A stretch of DNA of 64,000 nt from a virus (IMGVR_UViG_3300010883_000017:1-64000); one strand, 5' to 3'; shown: positions 2,952-40,927, counted from the stretch's first letter. The notes: a model not told the origin generated them from the sequence alone. Program-made: numbers and translations.

Positions 2952-5705
2952 ATGAGTACTGGCAATCCAGGTAAAAGTTTGAATATTCATGCCCCGTGGC
3001 ATGAAGTTCTACAGCTTCTTGATATTAATGTGCAGGTTCTTGTGTTGCCTGCCACTGTATCTTGTCCACATTGTAAACAAACTAGTTTACATGTATATCA
3101 GGATATCACATCTGGCGGCGCATGGCACTACTGCTCCGCCTGCAAATTCGCCGGTGATACAATAGAGTTAGTAGCTTCAGTATGGAAGCAGGATATCGCA
3201 ACGACCATACTTAAGCTAAACGCCCACGGCATTAGTTTCCCAGATGATGCGCTAGATCCTAGTATAATCGATCGCTACATACTGGGTCACGTAGAATACC
3301 GTAAAGGGATCCAGGCATTATGGGAATTATCTCAAGAACGTCTACCGCTTAATGATACCCACACGATAGCAAAATTGCATGATAAATTCACCGCAGGGCA
3401 CACAGCAAGTAGTATAACATGGCCTCGTCGTGGAAAATGTTTTCTTGGTGGTTGTCATATTAACGATGTTTTACGCGCATTTCGTCAAGAGAAGGTGCGG
3501 AATAGCGGGCCAGATTTAGATCCCTGCACACTGAATTCCGGCTATGACCGCATCTTCAAGGGTCGCGGTTGGACGGATGTGCTTGTGCTCCCGCACTACG
3601 AATTACCTGGAAAAATACGCGGGTTTACGTTCATCGGGCGCGAGGGTAGCGCAAAAGACATACTTTACCGGCGCGTGAATACCCACCCCGCAGGGCGCCG
3701 CCCCAAAATAGAAACTAACGCAGCAGCGTACGATCCGGGCCTAACCATGTACGAGACTATGTTCTCGTACCATTCCAGGTACAAGAGCACGACGTTTGTT
3801 CTTGCTGATCCTGTTGCCGCTTTGCGCCTGCAGCTTCGGCACCTACGGCAAAGCAACACACCGCTTCCTGTATGCGGCAGCTATTCTGATGGGAAGTTGA
3901 CCAATCGTTGGTTGTGGTCGGCGGCCTTTTCGCGGAATTTCATTTTTTGGGGTCGGACACTAACACCAGATCTCATCCAGCAGGCGCGCCACGCAAATGG
4001 CAAGATAGCCGTTGGAAAAACATTAAGTACGCTTGCGGCAGCGCCTTCAGAAAAATCACCTACTCAATGGCTTGATTTGATGGAACGCACTGCCAAGCCT
4101 TGGCAGGTTGTACTGGAAGATGAACTCAACGCCGCCAGCTTACCCGTCGCAGAGAGTTTGCTGTTACGGCTGCGGCTATCTTCTCAAGAGCTGAAGGAGT
4201 TTTCTACTGGGTGTAGCTTAGCTGTCCGTGAAAAATTGGCAGACCTATTTGCAACTACAAAGCATGGTTTTAAATCTGTGCTTGTGGAGAGTAAGACTTT
4301 AATAGAAACAAAAGAGGGCTGGTGCCTAGAAGATGGAACAGTAATCTGTGATACCGTAATTCGTATTGAAAAAGTGGTGCACCAACCCACAAAAAATTGC
4401 GCGTATTACCGAGGATACATAGAGAGAAACGGCAGTCGCGTAGAGTTCACAGATGAAGTTGAATATGTAGAGGTTCATGTAGGCAAGTGGTTACGTAATA
4501 AACTGATTTCTGCCGGCCTCGGGCGGCCTAAAGTCTCAAGGACATGGCAGAAGCACCTACTTACGATCGCACAAAGCTTTCACGAGCCAGAAAATGTGGT
4601 GGGGATCGGTTCCTTTGGTTGGAAAGAGGAGCAGCAGTCATTCGTATTTCCACATTTTGTATTGCGCAGGAACGGCGAAGTCGTTGACGACCCGCTTGTT
4701 CGTGTTGTTAATGACAATTCTCCCGCGGTTGCGTTACGACAGCCCCAGCTGCTAACGCCGCAACAGGTCGCACAATTAAACGAACCTGAAGAGCATCTGG
4801 ACGTGTTTTGGGCGACCACAGCGTGTGTAGTGTCAAACATCATATCGCCCGCATTTAACCTGCCGCCTACAGGACTCGCGCTCTTTGGTGCTGGCGCCAC
4901 TATGGCCGGGCGGGCAGCTGCCCGCACACTTGGTTGTGTAGACGTTGAGCTAGGGCAGCAGACGATGGGCAGTGCGTTGCGTAAATTACACACGGCTAAT
5001 ACGGCGCACGGCTGGCCGTTTGTCCTCAAAAAATACGGCACAGTAAAAAATAAGACACTCCGCGCATGGTTAGCTGACCCAGAAGCTAAAAACTGTGTGG
5101 TGGTTGCGGGCTGGTATCAAGCACAAGTACTGATGTTAAACGGCGGGTGGAACGTAATTGAATGCCAACGTCCGGGAACAACACTACACAGCGTCCTAGA
5201 GCTGGGTCCGATTGTATTGCCTGCCTTTCTACAGTACCTGTGCCGGCAACGATTGCAGATACAACGTGACGAGGGCCTCGTGCGCGGTGTACTTAACGAG
5301 CTATCCCTGTGGTTTGAAGGGCTAGGCGGGCACGACTTGCGCAGGTGCGGACGGCTACTACACGTCGGAGAAGTATTTTCCAGGGAACCGCAGCCGCGTG
5401 AGCGTTTTCTGAATATTGTCTTTCAAATGATGACAGAACATAAGTTGCGACTAGTCATAGAAGGGTTTAATAACGAGGGCCGCGCGAACCAAGCAATTCA
5501 ACACAATGAACATATCTACGTGCCGCAGCAGGCAGTACTAGAACTTATCGCAAAGAAAGGCGCCCCGGGGCCGAACATAAACTTGCTTGAGCAAGAGTTC
5601 AACACGTACTCCGTAAATGGTGCACTGTACTGGTCTATTCCTGAAGAGGAGTGGCTAACCGCAATAAACGAAAGGAGACCCAGCGCAATAACAGAGGTAA
5701 TATGA
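2952..5705 (+). CDS. large protein with N-terminal CHC2-type (primase-like) zinc finger
   Basis: CPHC...HYCSACKFAGDTIELV and LVLPHYELPGKIRGFTFIGR resemble the DnaG N-terminus; no clear TOPRIM acidic motif. Confidence 0.55.
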   Translation: MSTGNPGKSLNIHAPWHEVLQLLDINVQVLVLPATVSCPHCKQTSLHVYQDITSGGAWHYCSACKFAGDTIELVASVWKQDIATTILKLNAHGISFPDDALDPSIIDRYILGHVEYRKGIQALWELSQERLPLNDTHTIAKLHDKFTAGHTASSITWPRRGKCFLGGCHINDVLRAFRQEKVRNSGPDLDPCTLNSGYDRIFKGRGWTDVLVLPHYELPGKIRGFTFIGREGSAKDILYRRVNTHPAGRRPKIETNAAAYDPGLTMYETMFSYHSRYKSTTFVLADPVAALRLQLRHLRQSNTPLPVCGSYSDGKLTNRWLWSAAFSRNFIFWGRTLTPDLIQQARHANGKIAVGKTLSTLAAAPSEKSPTQWLDLMERTAKPWQVVLEDELNAASLPVAESLLLRLRLSSQELKEFSTGCSLAVREKLADLFATTKHGFKSVLVESKTLIETKEGWCLEDGTVICDTVIRIEKVVHQPTKNCAYYRGYIERNGSRVEFTDEVEYVEVHVGKWLRNKLISAGLGRPKVSRTWQKHLLTIAQSFHEPENVVGIGSFGWKEEQQSFVFPHFVLRRNGEVVDDPLVRVVNDNSPAVALRQPQLLTPQQVAQLNEPEEHLDVFWATTACVVSNIISPAFNLPPTGLALFGAGATMAGRAAARTLGCVDVELGQQTMGSALRKLHTANTAHGWPFVLKKYGTVKNKTLRAWLADPEAKNCVVVAGWYQAQVLMLNGGWNVIECQRPGTTLHSVLELGPIVLPAFLQYLCRQRLQIQRDEGLVRGVLNELSLWFEGLGGHDLRRCGRLLHVGEVFSREPQPRERFLNIVFQMMTEHKLRLVIEGFNNEGRANQAIQHNEHIYVPQQAVLELIAKKGAPGPNINLLEQEFNTYSVNGALYWSIPEEEWLTAINERRPSAITEVI

Positions 5706-6319: not shown

Positions 6320-6579
6320 TGACATTAACACGAAGCACGCCTATTTGCGTGAAATGTAAAGTGATTATGAAGTGTCACAAAAATGCTCAATTTGTACAGG
6401 ACCCGACTGTTGGCGGGTTTCCGAGCACAGTTTGGAGTGGGGATGTCTGGAAATGTCCAGGCTGCTCGTGTAAGGTTGTAACTGGTTTCGGGTCGGCTAT
6501 CGTTAACGGTGTTGGCTCAGTTGATGTTTTAGAATTTAAGTGGGACCTCAAAAGTCCCAACGAAAACGAAGGAGAGTAG
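6319..6579 (+). CDS. small zinc-ribbon protein
   Basis: CVKC...WKCPGC. Confidence 0.6.
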   Translation: MTLTRSTPICVKCKVIMKCHKNAQFVQDPTVGGFPSTVWSGDVWKCPGCSCKVVTGFGSAIVNGVGSVDVLEFKWDLKSPNENEGE

Positions 6580-10158: not shown

Positions 10159-10750
10159 GCGCCCTAAGTCAGCGCGCCTGCATAGCTTGTTACAGGAGTT
10201 GGATATCAAATCCTGGGACGTGCTCTTAATAGGGGATGGTTCCGGCAGCGGCTGGGATATCGGGGTTGGTTGGTCGTGCGTAGTGATAGATCGATATACG
10301 AAGTCTCGGAAGCTAATACACGGCGGCGGTAGTACAGGAACTGTAAATATCGCGGAGCTGATGGCCTACGTGCACGCCATGCTTTGGTACTCTACCCACA
10401 TAGGCCGTGAGCTGCGCAAGCAATACCCTCGCAAGATTCTCAATATTCATGTAATCACGGATTCCCGTGTTATTGTGACCCAGGGCAAGAAGGTTGCAGA
10501 ACGGAACACAGAAGGGCTGGCTAACCGCGCGTTGTGGGCATCCATCAGCGATATCGCCCGCCAGGGTTACACATTCCACTGGCATTGGATCGCGCGGCTC
10601 ACTAATGAATTGAACTGGGCGGCCGATCAGATGGCAGGCTCAGCCAGAAAAGCTGTAAAAAATTGCATGCTTACTGAGGACGTGCCGGATGAGAACGGCA
10701 AGTATACGGGGGTGTCGATATACGACATCAACCCACTAATTAAAAAATGA
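10145..10750 (+). CDS. rnhA: ribonuclease HI
   Basis: Catalytic pattern IGDGS...VNIAEL...ITDS...NRALW...WHWI...N..AD; start uncertain (track ORF begins 10079). Confidence 0.82.
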   Translation: MKKSKRPKSARLHSLLQELDIKSWDVLLIGDGSGSGWDIGVGWSCVVIDRYTKSRKLIHGGGSTGTVNIAELMAYVHAMLWYSTHIGRELRKQYPRKILNIHVITDSRVIVTQGKKVAERNTEGLANRALWASISDIARQGYTFHWHWIARLTNELNWAADQMAGSARKAVKNCMLTEDVPDENGKYTGVSIYDINPLIKK

Positions 10751-10868
10751 CCAAAGGTTAGCGAAGAATAGCAAAGTGAGGTTGCGGCTAGTTATGCGTG
10801 GGTGTGAAATTTCGTGCATTGTTTAGCAAGTGCCCCCGTTATGTAGAAATATATACCGGGGGATTTTT
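10749..10868 (+). ncRNA. detached array unit U0 (pentamer tract + GAAA hairpin + U-tract)
   Basis: 10754-10828 reads aaggt tagcg aagaa tagca aagtg aggtt gcggc tagtt atgcg tgggt gtgaa atttc gtgca ttgtt tagca (G at position 3 in 14/15), then cccccgttatgta-GAAA-tatataccggggg-attttt-aatccaag, matching the array repeat. Confidence 0.8.
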
Positions 10869-10932
10869 AATCCAAGTGCAGTGAAGAGAGACTAGAAGTG
10901 CAAATCCAAGTAACACAAGGCAAAGTAGGACA

Positions 10933-11481
10933 ATGAATATCTGCCATGAGCACGAGTTCATACTATGGGCACACCCGAGAACCGCAGCGCGTTTTGTATA
11001 TTCTGCGCTGCGGAACCGCGGAAGCATGGGTCCTCTCACGCATCGAACCGGTGTTCCGATAGACGGCGCTGGTTACAGTGTTGTTTGCACGGTGCGCAAT
11101 CCCTATACGCGAATGCTATCTGCGTGGAAGTGGACGAATGCGGTGGGAAAGCAGCGGTACTCGCCGGAGAGTTTTACGGAGTTTGTAAGAAAGCACACGC
11201 CGTTATGGGGGTTACCGCCGATTTCAAAGGACCTGGGCCACAAGTTGAAGATGGTCAAATACTTTGTGCGCACAGAGTCGATTGAGAAAGACTTACGCGC
11301 ACTCCCCTGGGTTCCGGACACACATTCGTTCCCCAAGAATACGTACTGTAGTAATTATAAGGGCTACACTCCGACCGCTTTGTATGACGAAGAAGCACAA
11401 GAGAAAGTTCGCCGGTTGTATTGCGGAGATTTTGCAGAGTTCGGATACGATCCAGATGTGATTCCCGCAACGTTTTATTAA
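10933..11481 (+). CDS. sulfotransferase family 2 protein
   Basis: HPRTA, VRNPYTRMLSAW, FVRTESIEKDL, LY..D...FGY. Confidence 0.8.
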   Translation: MNICHEHEFILWAHPRTAARFVYSALRNRGSMGPLTHRTGVPIDGAGYSVVCTVRNPYTRMLSAWKWTNAVGKQRYSPESFTEFVRKHTPLWGLPPISKDLGHKLKMVKYFVRTESIEKDLRALPWVPDTHSFPKNTYCSNYKGYTPTALYDEEAQEKVRRLYCGDFAEFGYDPDVIPATFY

Positions 11482-11494
11482 CGAAAGAAGGACA

Positions 11495-11755
11495 ATGAGA
11501 GTAACGGAGATTTCTGTAGAAGTAGGCAGAACTGCCACCATTAATTACCAGAGCGCGCGCAACTCAGTTGGTCTTACAGCCACCCTAGCGGCTGATGACC
11601 ACGCGCCTACCGCGATCCGCTCGTTACAAAAGCAAGCCGTAGATATGCTTCTAGGTGACAACGAACAATTTCGGGACGCCGAAAATGTGACTTCTGTGGA
11701 TGCGGAGAGCCTAGATGCGGCTATTCGTGCAGGGGCGGAGTCTCGCGAACACTGA
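11495..11755 (+). CDS. hypothetical protein
   Basis: AAGGA RBS, compact ORF. Confidence 0.6.
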   Translation: MRVTEISVEVGRTATINYQSARNSVGLTATLAADDHAPTAIRSLQKQAVDMLLGDNEQFRDAENVTSVDAESLDAAIRAGAESREH

Positions 11756-11796
11756 TTTACCGTGGGTAACGGGCAAATACTTTGTTATCCATAACA

Positions 11797-12810
11797 GGAT
11801 TTTTGATCTAAGTCGTGCCCCGTAGTGTGGAGAGGATCTAAGAGGACTACCGCCGACAACAGGAAGTACGGTATGCATCCTTGGCGTGCAGAAATGTGCG
11901 CCAGGGGTTTTTTGATCTAAGGCCAGTCTTGAGGAACGAAGTTCGGGAAAGTCTCGATGAGTTTACTTGTGTACTGCCAATTTTAGTTCGCAATAGTGAT
12001 GGAAAGCGGTGCGGATTTTAGCGCGGCGTAGTACAGTGCCCCCGCCATGTGGAAACGCGTGGCGGGGGATTTTTGATCCAAGGGAAGAGGCGCAAAGGGG
12101 TACCAAGTTGAGCTCCGCATACAAACGCTTAGAACTCGGCAGTACAGCGAGGGATAGCGCTGCGCAGCGATGCGTAGACTAATGTAAGTAAGCATCCCTG
12201 TCGTATGGAAACATGCGCCAGGGATTTTTTGATCTAAGAAATAGCAAAGCAGCGTACGGGCATGATCACTCATAACAAGTCGAGCGCACTCTAGGTGTGT
12301 GCGGTATACAAGAGTAACAGCCCCCGTCATGTAGAAATGTGTGACGGGGGATTTTTGATCTAAGCCGGGTAGGGTAGAGGGATGCTCGGTAAATACCAGC
12401 CGGGACAAGTGTGGCCGTCAAGTGCGGGCTCAGTTAAGTTAGCGCTTCCGTCGTGCAGAAATGTGTGGCGGGGGATTTTTGATCCTAGGAAAGAGCCGTT
12501 GTGGCAAGTGGAGAGGAGCCCAGACCAGCATCGTATAGTAGCGCTCGGTCAAGCTCGGGATACCTTAGCCCGCGTAATCAGAGATGGTTGCGCGGGTATT
12601 TTTGGCCCCGTTCGTCTAGTGGACTAGGACACCGGCTTCTCAAGCCGGGAACAGGAGTTCAATTCTCCTACGGGGTACATTTTGATCCAAGTGGAGTCGA
12701 TATTACCGGTGTATAGGGGAGGCTAGTCCTGCAACGAGCAGTTCTGCGTCGCTCAGATAACCAGACTAGTGGGCCCGGGCGTTCGTTACGGGCGCTCGGG
12801 CTCATTTATT
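11797..12810 (+). repeat. tandem non-coding RNA array of 7 units: GATCYAAG + (AGY-NN)n tract + hairpin + U-tract
   Basis: Unit starts (GATCYAAG/GATCCTAG) at 11805, 11914, 12075, 12231, 12357, 12481, 12684. GNRA hairpins begin near 11879, 12039, 12195, 12321, 12445, 12568, with G-U pairs and compensatory changes; the last unit ends in a different GC hairpin (12771-12803). Tracts differ between units but are 5-nt periodic. Confidence 0.92.
12605..12677 (+). tRNA. tRNA-Glu (anticodon CUC), embedded in the array
   Basis: Acceptor gccccgt/acggggt, D arm gtctagtggactaggac, anticodon arm ccggc-ttCTCaa-gccgg, T arm aggag-ttcaatt-ctcct; no complete CCA encoded. Confidence 0.9.
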
Positions 12811-12812
12811 AC

Positions 12813-13889
12813 GTGGCAAACTGGGTTCAAATAGGGAATGTAAATATGAAAAGCAGGAAGAAAAAAGTTAAGCAAAATACAAAGCGAAACGCGCCGAAAA
12901 CATCAGTTTTGCGCCGCAAGAATACACGTTTAATGAGCAGGACTTCCGGAGGACGGCAGTCAGTTGTCGAAGCGCGTCTTGATAAAAAGGCCGATACAAT
13001 TTTGGCCAAAGCAAAAATCATCAAGATAGCTGCGCAACCAACAAAGGTGTACCGCACTGTGAAAATTGACGATCTCCAGATCGACAACTCTTATCAGCGT
13101 CCGCTGAAAGAAGGTCATATTGCTGACATCATGATGTACTTCAATTGGGAGGGCTTCGGCACACCAGTTATAGGACGCCGTACTGGTGGCGGGCTATGGT
13201 TAATTGACGGGCAGCAGCGGATTACCGCAGCGCAGCGCTTGGGTGCTACCAGCGTTGGCGCAGAGATCCGCGATTCTGTAGGGCCCAAATATGAAGCAAG
13301 TCTGTTTCATTTGTTGAACTCAACGAGCGTCGTCCCGACGAAGATGCAGATCTTCCGCGCGGCATTGCGCGCGGGTAATAAGAACGCCGTTGCTATCAAT
13401 AAAGCAGTTAAAGAGGCGGGATTTCAAATCCATTTGAATGCGGTCAATTATAGCGGCAGCGAGTGGCCGTATATTCGAGCACTCAGTCGTTTAGAAAAGC
13501 TGTTTAAGTACGGCGGCGTACAATTTCTTACGGAGGTGCTCTCGATAATTAGTGAGACGTGGCCGGAAGAAGATGACGCAGTTCGCGAGGACGTTATCGG
13601 TGGAATGCACCGGTTTATTCGTTTTACTCGGTACAGTGATCCGCGCCCCAAGGGCTGGTTGCACGAGCTCATGCCCACAAGGGGGATGACGCGCCGCGAT
13701 CGTATCGTAGAGGCGATTACGCAGAAGGGTCTGACTGCTGCAGGCTTACATAACAAAGCTGCGAACAGCAAGGAATCGGCGTCTGGCTACAGCCGCGCCG
13801 AAGCTGTGCAGCGTATCTTGGACGAGACGTGCAGGTTTAATAGCCGCCGTAGAACGCCTAAAAGTACCGCTGCCGACGACATGGTTTAA
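12813..13889 (+). CDS. ParB/DGQHR-like (DUF6551-type) protein
   Basis: LQIDNSYQRPL ... LWLIDGQQRITAA ... EASLF..LN; the real start may be ATG 12846. Confidence 0.7.
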   Translation: MANWVQIGNVNMKSRKKKVKQNTKRNAPKTSVLRRKNTRLMSRTSGGRQSVVEARLDKKADTILAKAKIIKIAAQPTKVYRTVKIDDLQIDNSYQRPLKEGHIADIMMYFNWEGFGTPVIGRRTGGGLWLIDGQQRITAAQRLGATSVGAEIRDSVGPKYEASLFHLLNSTSVVPTKMQIFRAALRAGNKNAVAINKAVKEAGFQIHLNAVNYSGSEWPYIRALSRLEKLFKYGGVQFLTEVLSIISETWPEEDDAVREDVIGGMHRFIRFTRYSDPRPKGWLHELMPTRGMTRRDRIVEAITQKGLTAAGLHNKAANSKESASGYSRAEAVQRILDETCRFNSRRRTPKSTAADDMV

Positions 13890-13902
13890 TACATGCGTAT
13901 AA

Positions 13903-14018
13903 GCCCCCACACACACACTTTGCGTGTGTGCGGGGGTTGTTTACTGCTCTGTGCTGCTGCGCGATACAAAGCGGAGCTGGGTCAAGCGGAGAAATGCCCG
14001 GGCCAGCATAGCAGAGTT
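13903..14018 (+). promoter_or_regulatory. hairpin plus pentamer-periodic tract in the leader of the RAMP-like gene
   Basis: ccccc...ggggg hairpin at 13903-13937, then 13944-14018 ctgct ctgtg ctgct gcgcg ataca aagcg gagct gggtc aagcg gagaa atgcc cgggc cagca tagca gagtt (G at position 3 in 14/15). Confidence 0.75.
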
Positions 14019-14051
14019 TTTGTTTTTGAAATTAAATGGAGGAATTTGAGT

Positions 14052-14846
14052 ATGCCAACCACAAAAAAGGCCCCTAAAAAGGCCACTAAAAAGAGAGGCG
14101 TTAAAGGAAATATGTCTGCGATGTTAGCAGAGATGCCAGACGACGCGCTTGCTACCATAGAAAAAGAGGGGGGAGACCTTCTCGACCTGGAGCTTATTGA
14201 GTTTCACTGGTTGGAGTGTGAAATCATCGGATCAAGTCCTTTGGTTACTAATCGGTTCTCTGATGAGTCTTTGGATGCGATCGAGGGTAATCAGACCCAA
14301 GGAGCAACTGGTAAGAAGCTTAAGAAGCCCCCGCGACAACCTGAGAAGGAGTTTATGCAGGCTGCGCATATATGTAAGGGGAAAGCAGATCCTGCGCACC
14401 TTGAGAAGAACATCTATGGATTTCCCGCTGTCGCTTTGAAAAAGGCCATGGCTAACGGGAACTACAGATACGGAGGCGCGAAGGATAAGGTGTCGCAGAT
14501 GGGCGCATTTCATGTGCACGGCCCCTGGCACGGGCTGATCGAGGTGCAGGGGCTTGATGACAAGCCGTGTATCCCCTCGATGGGACGTGATATGGTCCAG
14601 CTTCCTAAGGGGCAGATTGCGTCTATCGCGTATAGACCATACTACTTCCCGTGGAAGATGAGCGTATTTATCCGGTATTGTCCGACCTTGATGTCCAAGG
14701 ACGAGCTGATTCACGCCCTGTATATCGCAGGCAATTGCATCGGCATTGGTTCTTGGCGCACGGAAAAGAGCGGGGACAAGGGCTCGTTCGACGTCGGTGA
14801 TATCAAGTACCACGGAAAAAACTTCCAAGCACCTCTGTGCTCGTAA
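14052..14846 (+). CDS. stand-alone RAMP / Cas7(Csm3)-like RNA-binding protein
   Basis: GGAGG RBS before ATG 14052; beta1 ECEIIGSSPLV, YGFPAVALKKAM (cf. Csm3 PYIPGSSLKG), C-terminal G-rich loop GIGSWRTEKSGDKGSFDV. Confidence 0.72.
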   Translation: MPTTKKAPKKATKKRGVKGNMSAMLAEMPDDALATIEKEGGDLLDLELIEFHWLECEIIGSSPLVTNRFSDESLDAIEGNQTQGATGKKLKKPPRQPEKEFMQAAHICKGKADPAHLEKNIYGFPAVALKKAMANGNYRYGGAKDKVSQMGAFHVHGPWHGLIEVQGLDDKPCIPSMGRDMVQLPKGQIASIAYRPYYFPWKMSVFIRYCPTLMSKDELIHALYIAGNCIGIGSWRTEKSGDKGSFDVGDIKYHGKNFQAPLCS

Positions 14847-14858
14847 ATAGTTAGTTAC

Positions 14859-14906
14859 GCCCCCGGCCTCGTTGATTATGTCAGCGGGGCCGGGGTTATT
14901 TTTTTT
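14859..14906 (+). terminator. intrinsic terminator after the RAMP-like gene
   Basis: ccccggcctcgttga/tcagcggggccgggg stem followed by a T8 tract. Confidence 0.75.
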
Positions 14907-14925: not shown

Positions 14926-15177
14926 ATGTCAGATCCTACTGAAAGCATTCGACGAGAAATGGTTGCTCACATTAATAACGAGCCGGCCACACGAGAGCAA
15001 CTTGAAGAGCAGCACGGACGCGTATGGGATACCGCAGAAATGCAAAAAGACTTCGAGGTACTTGGTTTCATGGCACCGCTCGTGGTCGTTAAGAGAACCG
15101 AAGACGCCGTTCGCGGCGCGTTGGAATTCCAACATGCCCCGCGCTTCTATTACGGCTTTACGGAATCACAGGGATAG
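14926..15177 (+). CDS. conserved phage hypothetical protein
   Basis: GGAG RBS; FEVLGFMAPLVVVKR...G.LEFQH.PRFY. Confidence 0.65.
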   Translation: MSDPTESIRREMVAHINNEPATREQLEEQHGRVWDTAEMQKDFEVLGFMAPLVVVKRTEDAVRGALEFQHAPRFYYGFTESQG

Positions 15178-16085: not shown

Positions 16086-16682
16086 ATGGCGACCACGGAA
16101 ACGGCACAAACCCCGGCGCTAGCCACGCCAGTTGAAGTTCGATTTAGAGCTGCAACAGGTTCGCGCTTTAATAAAGCAGATGCTGAACGAATTGGGCCCG
16201 AACTACTGCGGCTGAAGAAGCACCACGGAGTTCTTACCAAGGATCTACTTGTACAAAAGGCGCAGAGCGCCCGCTCGATCTTGCATGCTGATTTTAATTG
16301 GGATGACGCAACAGCTGCGCATGCCCACCGATTGGAGCAAGCACGTTACATACTGCGGTCCATCATGATTGTGTGGGATGAGAGCACACCTGATGGCGGT
16401 GTCGAGCAGGTGTCTACGCGCTTGTTCCACAGTGTCCGCGTGAACAGCGATGATGAGGATGCCCCAACAAACCGCGGTACCCGCAGTCAACGCGTACACG
16501 TCACGTTTCGAGATGTGGTTGAGAACCCGGAATACGCTCAACAGGTCATCGATTCTATGGAACGAGCAGTAGTGCGGTTGGATGCACGATTTCGGTTTTA
16601 TTTGGATAAAGTTCCAATGTTTGCCGAAAGGTACCAGGGACTTTTTGACGAGATTACCGCCTTGGAAGATAACATAGACTAG
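16086..16682 (+). CDS. conserved phage protein (LH..F.WDD..AA..HRL.QAR family)
   Basis: AAGGAGG RBS; motif IG.EL..L....G.LT...LV..A....S.LH..FNWDD..AA.AHRLEQAR.I.RSI. Confidence 0.7.
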   Translation: MATTETAQTPALATPVEVRFRAATGSRFNKADAERIGPELLRLKKHHGVLTKDLLVQKAQSARSILHADFNWDDATAAHAHRLEQARYILRSIMIVWDESTPDGGVEQVSTRLFHSVRVNSDDEDAPTNRGTRSQRVHVTFRDVVENPEYAQQVIDSMERAVVRLDARFRFYLDKVPMFAERYQGLFDEITALEDNID

Positions 16683-38168: not shown

Positions 38169-39845
38169 ATGGCCAACAGTCGAGGTATCGACGGACAGAA
38201 TAGCTTTGCCTTTACGAAAGGGCGCATGAGTCCGTCGTTAGTCGAGTCTATGCTGATTCGACTCTTATCACATCCAGGTTTATTTCAAGAAGCTAAGGGT
38301 ATTCTCTTACCAACTCATTTTGAGAGCACTGAGTCTCGGTTTTCTGCTATTTGGGCGGCGGCCATTCAGTGTGATGATGAGTTTGCTCGGTTGACCTTTG
38401 AGACGATGTCAGACCGGGTTGAAGAGTTACTTGCTGATGCAGGAGAAGATGTTTCTTCGCAACAGGGAGAGGCGATTTTTGGAACGGACCCAGACCGCCC
38501 GGGGATTCTTTACTGGGCGTTATCGCAAGTAGATCCCGCCGATGTCGACCTTGATCAAGGGCGCCATCTTCTACGTCGTTTTTTAGAAGAGCGGGTACTT
38601 GCTGACGAGCTGCGAAGTGCGCTTGAATTTGCTCCCGGCGGCGTCCCGTCTAATCTTCCCGCCATTATTGAGCGGGCTAACCAGGCGCGGGAGCGCATCA
38701 CCAATATTCAAGATGATCCTGTAGAGCTGGGGATCCCTGATAATTGGGAACCAGAATCGCTCGACATCTGGCCAACATGCTTACCCTTTTTAGACACACC
38801 TATGGACGGTGGTCACGCGCGTGGCGAGGTGTACGGGATCTTGGGGCCGTTTGGCGTTGGGAAAACTACTCTTGGTATTCAACTGTGCGTGGAGCAATGT
38901 CGTTACTGGCACGACCGCGAGGTTGAGTATGGAGAAGAGGGTGGGCAGGTTTTTTTCTTCAGTTATGAGCAATCGGCTACGGAAGTTCGTAGGAAGGCTG
39001 TTGCCTGCGCTGCGCGTATTCACATGTCGACGATGAATACTATTACGGGAGAAGACAGTTTTAGCACTCGGGGTTCTCTTAAGGACTATGAGACGGAGAT
39101 GTTCAGGCAATCTGGCCTACTGTCTAACGGTGCTCCGCCTCCGCCAGGAGAGCTAGAGCGGTACGAGGATATTAAGGAGATGCTGCGCACACACTTACGT
39201 ATTGTTGATCTCTCTGGCGGCGCTAAGAAGCGTACCGGTGATGGGTATGTAGGCGAGATCGCAGCAATTCTTGAAAATAGCGTAAGGAAGCACAATTCTA
39301 AGCCTCGCATGGTTTGTATAGATCATGTGTGGCTTGCGGCGTACCGGCATCTATCGTCACAGGGAATGGATGAGCGGCGATTGCGGCACTTCATTACCAT
39401 GTTTGGTGACGATATGAAGACTAAAGTTGCTGAGCGGTACGAGATTCCTTGTTGGTTGTTGCATCAATATAACGGTGATGCGAATAAGGCCTCTCCGGCT
39501 AAGCTTCTTCATCATACCCAGGCGGCAGAGTCTTCTAGCTTTGCTATGCCTTTATCTTTTTGCTTTTGCATTGGAAATAAAGATCAGCAGTCTAATACTG
39601 CGCAGATGGTCTGCACCAAGCGACGGCGATCGGGAAATCCATTACCGCCCTCAATACTTGAAATTGAGGGGCAGTTTTCGACATTGCTTGATAGAACTGA
39701 CGCCTTTGTTGTCCAGCATGATAAGATTCTCCCCCGAGAGTTAGCTGAGCAGTTTGGCGGTTCAGCAGAGGAGGTAAATTATGTTCCACGTCCACAGCAG
39801 GGTGGTGGTTTGGATGGTGCGGGAGTCTGGGGCCCGGGAGTATGA
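38169..39845 (+). CDS. dnaB: DnaB-like replicative helicase
   Basis: GGHARGEV..ILGPFGVGKTT, FSYEQ, VCIDH, LLHQ, K.R. Confidence 0.8.
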   Translation: MANSRGIDGQNSFAFTKGRMSPSLVESMLIRLLSHPGLFQEAKGILLPTHFESTESRFSAIWAAAIQCDDEFARLTFETMSDRVEELLADAGEDVSSQQGEAIFGTDPDRPGILYWALSQVDPADVDLDQGRHLLRRFLEERVLADELRSALEFAPGGVPSNLPAIIERANQARERITNIQDDPVELGIPDNWEPESLDIWPTCLPFLDTPMDGGHARGEVYGILGPFGVGKTTLGIQLCVEQCRYWHDREVEYGEEGGQVFFFSYEQSATEVRRKAVACAARIHMSTMNTITGEDSFSTRGSLKDYETEMFRQSGLLSNGAPPPPGELERYEDIKEMLRTHLRIVDLSGGAKKRTGDGYVGEIAAILENSVRKHNSKPRMVCIDHVWLAAYRHLSSQGMDERRLRHFITMFGDDMKTKVAERYEIPCWLLHQYNGDANKASPAKLLHHTQAAESSSFAMPLSFCFCIGNKDQQSNTAQMVCTKRRRSGNPLPPSILEIEGQFSTLLDRTDAFVVQHDKILPRELAEQFGGSAEEVNYVPRPQQGGGLDGAGVWGPGV

Positions 39846-40927
39846 TGAGTAGCGGTGCACAGGTACTTAATCCTGAGTTGTACCGGCGTCTTCAGAAAAA
39901 CTTTGGTAATGTATTGATTGCGAATCCCGGCGAGGGATTTGTGGCAACTGTACGCCGAGGGTTGGACGGGCGCCCTAAGCAGCAGATAGCGCACTCTGGG
40001 GAGTACTACAGAGTGTGCTGTCCTTATTGTAAAGACACCCGTAACCGATTATGGGTGAACCATAAATTCGGGGCCTTTGATGAAAATACACGCAGTAAAA
40101 ATACGCACTTGGCTATTTGCTACAACGAGAACTGCCTAACCCACCCGGCACAGCGGCAGCGTTTTGAAAACGCGATATTCCTCGGAATGAACTGGTCTCA
40201 ACGTAAAGCCGTGGTTGTTCAGCGGGGCAGTACGCACGACGATACGCTTCGTGTTGTAAGTCCACCGGGCACGCTTGTTCCTGTTAATCAGCTCGCAGAT
40301 GGCCATAAGGTTTCAGCATATTTGCGTAGTCGTGGCTACTCTCCGGAGGAGCTCGGGACGTCTTTTCATGTTGATTATTGTGAGTTCGCCGAGCCTAAGT
40401 ACCCTGCAGCCGCCGATCGTATTGTGGCGTCTGTTGTAATGGACGGGCAGCTTGTTGGTTGGCAGTGTCGTTTTATTGGTGACATTGACTGGAAGCGTGC
40501 GGGGATGGCTAAGTACTATACCCGGCCGGGTATGCCTAAGAGGTTGATGTTTTACAACTATGATCAGGCTAAGAATTATCCATTGGTGGTTCTTACTGAG
40601 GGTATCTCAGATGTTTGGGCTGTCGGTCCGCAAGCAGTTGCCATGCTTGGTAAAAAGTTGCACGCCTCTCAAGAGCGCCTCTTGTGCGACACATGGGGCG
40701 AAGGTGTGCTGGTCGTAATGCTGGACCCCGACGCACGAGATGAAACTGATAAGTTGGTTCAGCGGTTAGAGTCTAAATTTGCAGGTGGTGTGGTTCCTGT
40801 TTACTTAGATGAGCAGGACCCCGGCGATCTTGATCGGGATGTTATCTGGTCAATTATTTCTGAAGAGTTAAAATCACGTAATTACCAAATGTATTCACTA
40901 GAAGAAAAAGAAGGAGATATATCATGA
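39842..40927 (+). CDS. dnaG: DnaG-like primase
   Basis: Zn finger CPYC.D...C..E.C, YL.SRG, GWQCR, KYY, TOPRIM LTEG..D, LDPDA, DPGD. Confidence 0.85.
   Translation: MMSSGAQVLNPELYRRLQKNFGNVLIANPGEGFVATVRRGLDGRPKQQIAHSGEYYRVCCPYCKDTRNRLWVNHKFGAFDENTRSKNTHLAICYNENCLTHPAQRQRFENAIFLGMNWSQRKAVVVQRGSTHDDTLRVVSPPGTLVPVNQLADGHKVSAYLRSRGYSPEELGTSFHVDYCEFAEPKYPAAADRIVASVVMDGQLVGWQCRFIGDIDWKRAGMAKYYTRPGMPKRLMFYNYDQAKNYPLVVLTEGISDVWAVGPQAVAMLGKKLHASQERLLCDTWGEGVLVVMLDPDARDETDKLVQRLESKFAGGVVPVYLDEQDPGDLDRDVIWSIISEELKSRNYQMYSLEEKEGDIS

Follow-up and report, generated by a model that had tools for sequence, protein, structure and literature searches.

Hairpins of fixed shape and variable sequence as the probable 3' tails of guide RNAs in a phage VIPR array

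A series of similar hairpins in a gene-free stretch of phage DNA raises the question of which RNA they belong to and what they do for it. The stretch lies on the + strand of an IMG/VR phage record of 73,848 bp, flanked by a small ORF (11495-11755) on one side and a ParB-like gene on the other. We refer to the first 64 kb of the record, the whole stretch of DNA that was analysed, as the window. CheckV estimates the completeness of the genome at 35%, and the DNA runs that contain the record are marine and seawater metagenomes. A preliminary description had recorded six hairpins, conserved in structure and not in sequence, as the ends of individual RNAs of about 110-160 nt, and had suggested that they act as a 3' cap, a processing signal or a leaky terminator. 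The coordinates of the features discussed below are collected in Table 1.

Table 1. Features of the hairpin array and its surroundings, in positions of the window. R1 is the covariance model built from the seven hairpins of the window.
Feature	Coordinates	Strand	Description
Um1, solo vrRNA unit	10749-10868	+	Pentamer tract, tail hairpin 10833-10862 with loop GAAA (10846-10849), AUUUUU; R1 66 bits
U0, vrRNA unit	11805-11913	+	GAUCUAAG start, guide tract, tail hairpin 11878-11907, U6
U1, vrRNA unit	11914-12074	+	25 pentamers, tail hairpin 12039-12068, AUUUUU
U2, vrRNA unit	12075-12230	+	24 pentamers, tail hairpin 12195-12224, U6
U3, vrRNA unit	12231-12356	+	Tail hairpin 12321-12350, AUUUUU
U4, vrRNA unit	12357-12480	+	Tail hairpin 12445-12474 (6 G-U pairs), AUUUUU
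U5, vrRNA unit	12481-12604	+	Tail hairpin 12568-12597 (GAGA loop), AUUUUU, abuts tRNA
tRNA-Glu(CUC) in array	12605-12678	+	ARAGORN and Rfam (59 bits); no encoded CCA; then CAUUUUGAUCC
U6, vrRNA unit	12684-12813	+	Ends in a different 17-bp hairpin (12768-12806) and a U-rich run
ParB-like / DUF6551 gene	12846-13889	+	Between array and vipr; synteny limited to near relatives
Tail-less pentamer tract, vipr 5' leader	13938-14040	+	After the terminator hairpin of the ParB gene (13903-13935); G phase 0.78-0.88
vipr gene, minimal Cas7-like RAMP	14052-14846	+	264 aa; profile, AF2 and Foldseek
Candidate vap gene	16086-16682	+	198 aa; PHROG 15946, function not assigned; no named family

Seven hairpins of this type were recovered with a covariance model in the whole 73.8-kb record. 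Six are located in the range noted before, at the places and with the loops recorded there (five GAAA and one GAGA), while the seventh, in the solo unit Um1, had been missed. The stems had been given as 12-13 bp; all are 13 bp in register, two of them with one internal mismatch. The hairpin was the minimum free energy (MFE) structure in all seven cases, with energies of -15 to -29 kcal/mol and z-scores of -3.0 to -6.7 compared with dinucleotide shuffles. The seven copies align without gaps, and 97.8% of the 91 stem cells are paired despite changes on both sides at 10 of the 13 pairs, which agrees with the view that structure rather than sequence is kept. None of 500 shuffles matched any of five pairing and covariation measures for these copies, and sliding the pairing partner by 1-3 columns lowered the stem pairing to 33-58%.

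To extend the comparison to related metagenome contigs, we searched these with R1. This yielded seven strong homologs, four in L016, two in L029 and one in L012, all on the same strand as the vipr gene of the respective contig. In the combined set of 14 copies the paired fraction was again 97.8% and compensatory changes were observed at 11 of the 13 pairs, in support of the compensatory changes noted before and of their extension to homologs. The 182 stem positions comprised 144 Watson-Crick pairs, 34 G-U pairs (19%) and 4 mismatches. About a fifth of the pairing would thereby be lost on the - strand, and the fold is confined to the + strand RNA, as had been proposed from the G-U pairs. The hairpin is real and is under selection as RNA. 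Elsewhere, a phage nucleotide database contained no relative of the array, the tRNA being the sole match. When IMG/VR was scanned for the tail-junction motif, two weak and probably fortuitous sites came up (R1 scores of about 20 bits), and a looser pattern matched nowhere. Within the databases scanned, the clade was thus found in its own record and in metagenome contigs only.

The geometry of the hairpin is uniform. A stem of 13 bp in register and a loop of 4 nt were found in all 14 copies, and the loop is of the GNRA type in 12 of them (10 GAAA, 1 GAGA, 1 GGGA and 1 AAAA; the loop at L016:808 was read provisionally as GAAA). The stem sequence differs from guide to guide, with a mean column identity of 78%. 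Other terminator-like hairpins in the window, such as the one after vipr (14861-14895), have stems of 13-16 bp and loops of 3-8 nt of no fixed type, which suggests that the array hairpins are constrained more tightly than by termination alone. The MFE structure is a single hairpin, and the sequence offers no obvious partner for a pseudoknot; pairing of the GNRA loop with the U run was ruled out by geometry, since the stem has 13 bp and there is no linker.

The hairpins belong to units of 109-161 nt that are arranged head-to-tail, all on the + strand. Each unit in the array opens with GATCYAAG, and TTTTGATCYWAG was found seven times, always on the + strand, with no further occurrence in the 73.8-kb record (1.07 occurrences expected with one mismatch allowed). 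Directly 3' of the hairpin is a run of five or six U followed by GAUCYAAG, the succession of T-run and GATC that had been described, except that the last hairpin is connected through AUUUUU to tRNA-Glu(CUC). Unit Um1 is set apart upstream of the array, between an RNase H-like and a sulfotransferase-like gene. The syntenic relative L012 has no equivalent of Um1 at this site (4893-4907), with just 14 nt between the two genes, indicating that single guide units are gained or lost at separate sites.

The body of each unit is composed of 14-25 tandem pentamers with the pattern AGY followed by two variable bases (NN), in which the third place of AGY is a pyrimidine in only about 65% of cases. When the phase is set by the G of GATC, G occupies the third position in 0.71-0.88 of the pentamers in Um1, U1, U2, U5 and U6, and the second base is mostly A; the single-phase G frequency was 0.82 for Um1 and 0.88 for U5. 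A scan of the whole 64 kb for period-5 tracts, using 85-nt windows and a single-phase G frequency of at least 0.76 (99.9th percentile 0.82), placed the array, the solo unit and the vipr leader among the top tracts, together with coding regions at 6376-6524 and 39778-39886. The peak at 6376-6524 was dropped as a vrRNA candidate, being part of a small zinc-ribbon-like ORF; the segment 6367-6783 contains a small Cys-rich, zinc-ribbon-like ORF followed, as judged by eye, by an ORF for a cold-shock domain. The guide bodies were no more folded than shuffled sequences (z-scores of +0.4 to +1.0, and -0.2 for U3), which is what a single-stranded guide bound by protein would look like. The spacing from the last AG to the stem varies, with the commonest value in 8 of the 14 copies, and so does the unit length modulo 5, arguing against a strict phase lock.

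Pentamer repeats with a structured tail are features of VIPR, a CRISPR-related DNA-silencing system of phages that was first described in 2026 preprints, with a type II system in Escherichia phage SUSP1 that consists of Vipr, vap1 and vrRNA1-4 (bioRxiv 10.64898/2026.04.26.720920, 10.64898/2026.04.26.720927, 10.64898/2026.10.15.759431). Its protein, Vipr, is a minimal RAMP with an RRM core, a G-loop and a thumb. A vipr gene is located 1.4 kb downstream of the array. We identified 14 homologs of its product in the protein collection, the closest Vipr proteins being 94% and 87% identical. When a profile of 15 homologs was compared with PDB sequences, the SUSP1 Vipr protein (36pp_D) was matched with an E-value of 8e-9, aligned over the G-loop region, and the single sequence matched SUSP1 Vipr with an E-value of 5e-4. 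The AF2 model (pLDDT 73) had its best Foldseek matches to Cmr4, Csm3 and Cas7-11, at E-values of 3.5e-6 and weaker; PADLOC gave no match for Vipr. In the three contigs with homologous hairpins (L016, L029 and L012), Vipr is 60-82% identical to that of the window over the aligned parts, and about 75% in L016.

The variable bases of the pentamers can be read by a rule in which two bases are specified and one is skipped (bioRxiv 10.64898/2026.04.26.720920). Antisense decoding of the U5 guide (12481-12567) by this one-base-skip rule gave DLIIGGPPCQAFS. A search of 596 Gb of genomes with the corresponding DNA pattern, in which 26 bases are specified, gave 25 exact matches (about 3e-4 expected). Each of the 25 is an in-frame match to motif IV of a C5 cytosine methyltransferase, the skipped base coinciding with the wobble position, and about half are in Gammaproteobacteria; the phage's own record has no match even with 3 mismatches. 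Other guides also decode to catalytic motifs: U1 (11914-12038) in antisense to AVTANPPFS, with the NPPF motif of N6-adenine methyltransferases, U6 (12684-12770) in sense to GRFGxGLP, a GHKL-ATPase-like (GxFGxG) motif, and Um1 (10749-10832) in antisense to a motif like box II of tyrosine recombinases. The phage seems to aim its guides at conserved enzyme motifs in genes for restriction-modification, defence or mobile elements and not at one satellite.

Arrays of pentamers bounded by hairpins are also present at distant Vipr loci (L009, L027, L031, L010 and L017; 23-46% identity). In L017 (6350-6950) the stems are 9-10 bp and covarying, with a conserved loop of 10 nt, and are followed by CUUGUUC; in L027 (1400-2300) near-identical UUCG hairpins follow AGATC in a CRISPR-like layout with no U run; and in L031 (3300-3680) GC-rich hairpins follow GCNNN repeats. 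To judge from these sequences, the form of the tail changes in more distant relatives and the logic is kept. The pentamer bodies and their lack of folding, the Vipr homolog, the arrays at distant Vipr loci and the skip-code matches together identify the units as vrRNAs and the locus as a VIPR system. The earlier suggestion for the RNAs fits this anatomy in its general form, whereas their identity as vrRNAs, each with a pentamer guide and a tail, had been missed.

In SUSP1, the tail of the vrRNA is an invariable hairpin of about 40 nt with a pseudoknot, placed at the 3' end by sRNA-seq and cryo-EM (bioRxiv 10.64898/2026.04.26.720920, 10.64898/2026.04.26.720927). The two systems share a phage-borne locus with a small Cas7-like Vipr, arrays beside protein genes, RNAs of about 100-160 nt with 5-nt repeats that contain two variable bases, a structured 3' tail (here read from the sequence), and a one-base-skip code whose skipped base falls on the wobble position of codons. 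They differ in the repeat triplet (AGY here and GGY as published), in the number of repeats per guide (14-25 compared with 9-16) and in the size of Vipr (264 aa with a Lys-rich N-terminal extension compared with 202 aa). The guides spell catalytic motifs from DNA methyltransferases, from a GHKL ATPase and from an integrase rather than one satellite, and the unit start UUGAUCYAAG and the true tRNA within the array are further differences, as is the tail itself, a plain 13-bp GNRA hairpin with a variable stem and a U run that is set apart from the pseudoknot tail as described. Other VIPR arrays are staggered, or interspersed with hammerhead ribozymes (types I and V), and have repeats of the form NNNGG, YNNNG or NNNNG (same preprint series). 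They resemble the array studied here in having head-to-tail guides that must be separated into units and a repeat consensus that deviates from GGY. No ribozyme was recovered here with Rfam at gathering or permissive thresholds, the tRNA being the only match retained, and separation would instead rest on the terminator-like hairpins, the U-rich linkers and the tRNA. A mir-299 match of Rfam to the terminator of the ParB gene (E 0.027) was discarded as chance.

The tRNA-Glu(CUC), in which G1 is paired with U72, begins 7 nt downstream of hairpin H5 of unit U5. A 100% identical tRNA is present in L016 (423-495), in the same hairpin-AUUUUU-tRNA-UUUGAUC arrangement as in the window; the hairpin before it differs from H5 at many stem positions and is still paired at 12 of 13. 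A genuine tRNA was found inside two of the four related arrays whose completeness allows a judgement. At a distance of 7 nt there is no room for a promoter between H5 and the tRNA, which implies that the tRNA is reached by read-through and that termination at the hairpin is incomplete.

This bears on one alternative, that the hairpins are ordinary Rho-independent terminators with no role in the loading of Vipr, each unit being transcribed from its own promoter, perhaps one that overlaps the U-run and GATC. The build is indeed the canonical one of an intrinsic terminator, with a stable GC-rich stem of 13 bp, a tetraloop and five or six U directly after it, and a consensus terminator scan recovered five of the six array hairpins. 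Long U runs are located exclusively behind hairpins, and elements of hairpin plus U also follow phage genes, so that phage transcription probably responds to them. We nevertheless consider termination as the sole function unlikely. Intrinsic terminators have the stem-loop and U run in common with the array hairpins, but here there are 7-14 copies of one fixed geometry in a co-oriented array with a tRNA directly downstream, and the combination points to leakiness and to a constraint added to that of a terminator. The uniform and mostly GNRA geometry is tighter than termination requires, and read-through is needed to explain the tRNA. Promoters of the sigma-70 type numbered zero in 10600-14100 compared with 3.2 in shuffled sequences. 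The unit-start motif is confined to the array and absent from the rest of the record, and is therefore not a general phage promoter. Two further promoter readings, a Bacteroidota-type TAnnTTTG promoter at the junction of U run and G and an extended -10 reading of TGATCTAAG, were dropped as unsupported, the host not being known.

The position of the hairpin within the unit can be read from the order of tracts and hairpins. In L016, L029 and Um1, the first tract has no preceding hairpin and starts after the end of a gene with an (A/U)UGAUC-like sequence, and the last hairpin in L016 and L029 is followed by a gene leader and no tract, which sustains the earlier claim that the hairpin closes the unit. 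Unit U6 starts behind the tRNA with no hairpin before it. The order at the array ends and behind the tRNA locates the hairpin at the 3' end of the unit; were it a 5' element, H5 would be left without a guide. Furthermore, U runs of 5-6 occur only behind hairpins, whereas starts behind the tRNA or behind genes read UU(U)GAUC or AUGAUC, so that the U run belongs with the hairpin and UGAUC with the next unit. There are two exceptions, the vipr leader tract and a weakly periodic tract at 10866-10932, both of which follow a hairpin and run tail-less into a ribosome-binding site, and which a 5' hairpin would fit as well.

CRISPR arrays have near-identical direct repeats, spacers of 25-40 nt and adjacent cas genes for adaptation and processing. 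As in CRISPR RNAs cut by Cas6, the hairpin of the array bounds a variable guide, would stay on the mature RNA and has a RAMP protein as partner. One could take the hairpin for a CRISPR repeat or 5' handle of the following unit, or for a stem whose base is the cleavage site of a RAMP-type nuclease, either Vipr or a partner of it. Vipr is a RAMP and Cas6 RAMPs cleave at hairpin bases, the hairpins of L027 alternate with tracts in a CRISPR-like manner and have no U run, and the two exceptional tracts have a hairpin on their 5' side only. Even so, we find this quite improbable, since the tracts at array starts have no 5' hairpin, the last hairpins have no following tract, U6 starts after the tRNA and leaves H5 guideless, and sRNA-seq and cryo-EM of SUSP1 put the structured part at the 3' end. 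Moreover, the hairpins here are non-identical, the 'spacers' are 73-125 nt and coded in pentamers, CRISPR arrays have neither such a U run nor a tRNA, and no cas genes, including cas1, cas2 and cas6, were found among the neighbours of the array. Hardly credible is a third reading, that the repeats act as DNA, as REP- or MITE-like palindromes or as sites of recombination or protein binding: they are imperfect palindromes beside Dam-type GATC sites, with a ParB-like gene close by, but the 34 G-U pairs of 182 are A-C mismatches on the opposite strand, all copies have the single orientation of vipr, the tRNA and the U runs, and the compensatory changes preserve pairing in RNA.

We conclude that the hairpins are very probably the 3' tails of vrRNAs in the guide array of a phage VIPR system, with a proposed role in making and protecting the 3' end and in marking the end of the filament. 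Most likely, they set and protect the 3' end of the vrRNA and cap the filament of Vipr. Each vrRNA would then consist of a 5' (U)UGAUCY, 14-25 single-stranded AGY+NN pentamers in which NN is the guide, the 13-bp GNRA hairpin and U5-6, and Vipr would polymerise along the pentamers with one protomer per repeat. The units could be made as one long transcript with leaky terminators, some transcripts stopping at the hairpin and U run; with six efficient terminators in succession, the downstream units would receive little transcription unless the terminators were leaky. Host RNases (of the RNase E type, or RNase P/Z) may cleave read-through RNA within the U-rich linker or at the tRNA, and the new ends may then be trimmed back to the stable stem. 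The hairpin would mark the end of the Vipr filament, by analogy with the 3' pseudoknot tail in SUSP1. For a tail that is plain and variable, the analogy with an invariable pseudoknot of about 40 nt is what suggests the cap, and the fixed stem of 13 bp with a mostly GNRA loop of 4 nt is an argument for a shape-specific role at the filament. More tentatively, and with some doubt, we suggest a design specific to this clade, in which a tail defined by shape and free in sequence serves both as leaky terminator and as a stop or loading mark for Vipr, and in which the guides would be freed by host enzymes only, through U-rich linkers and a functional tRNA-Glu, with no ribozyme or dedicated nuclease.

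As VIPR itself, the pentamer code, structured tails, alternative repeats and staggered or ribozyme-containing arrays are all present in the 2026 preprints, the RNAs are of a known kind and do not constitute a new class. In those parts of the VIPR preprints that were accessible, we did not find a covarying plain GNRA hairpin-terminator tail, a UUGAUC unit start or a true tRNA in an array, and the main texts of two of them contained no mention of a tRNA. Relative to these parts of the preprints, the variant described here is defined by the AGY triplet, 14-25 repeats, a hairpin-terminator tail that varies from guide to guide, the UUGAUCYAAG start and the in-array tRNA. VIPR is a new system of RNA-guided DNA recognition, and the making and bounding of its guides is known for very few examples. 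The locus shows that the tail of a vrRNA can be a minimal hairpin in which the geometry (13 bp, tetraloop and U run) is kept as the stem drifts, and that a real tRNA can be situated within a vrRNA array. If the tail suffices for formation of the 3' end and for capping by Vipr, programmable vrRNAs could be designed on this simple scaffold, and the feature that Vipr recognises at the end of its filament could be tested cleanly. If release by host enzymes and the tRNA is true, the array would parallel, in nature, the engineered tRNA-guide arrays. The guides that apparently read methyltransferase, GHKL ATPase and integrase motifs would widen the range of VIPR targets reported so far.

The surroundings of vipr have additional features of this kind. 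The tract in the vipr leader has a G in about 14 of 16 pentamers and runs into the ribosome-binding site without a tail of its own, and a pentamer tract is present at the matching position in L012; it may be an element for autoregulation or a tail-less guide. Contigs from two metatranscriptome runs, the only form in which these data were used, cover parts of 12999-14718, including the ParB-like gene, the vipr leader and vipr, the array being outside this coverage, which is uninformative on RNA ends and on the expression of small structured RNAs. The 5' arm of the hairpin at 13903-13935 contains a CA repeat of the form CCCCC-(AC)n, and two metatranscriptome contigs differ from the window by one CA unit at 13907/13908. 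Downstream of vipr, the ORF at 16086-16682 is the best candidate for an accessory vap gene on the strength of its neighbourhood, with homologs just downstream of vipr in 15 loci, including distant ones (Vipr 25-47% identical). An ORF of 83 aa (14926-15177) is located directly 3' of the vipr terminator, and a similar N-terminal peptide is encoded downstream of vipr in L015 and L018. The segment between vipr and this ORF contains only the terminator hairpin at 14861-14895 in the window, and a vrRNA with its own hairpin-U tail in L015 and L018.
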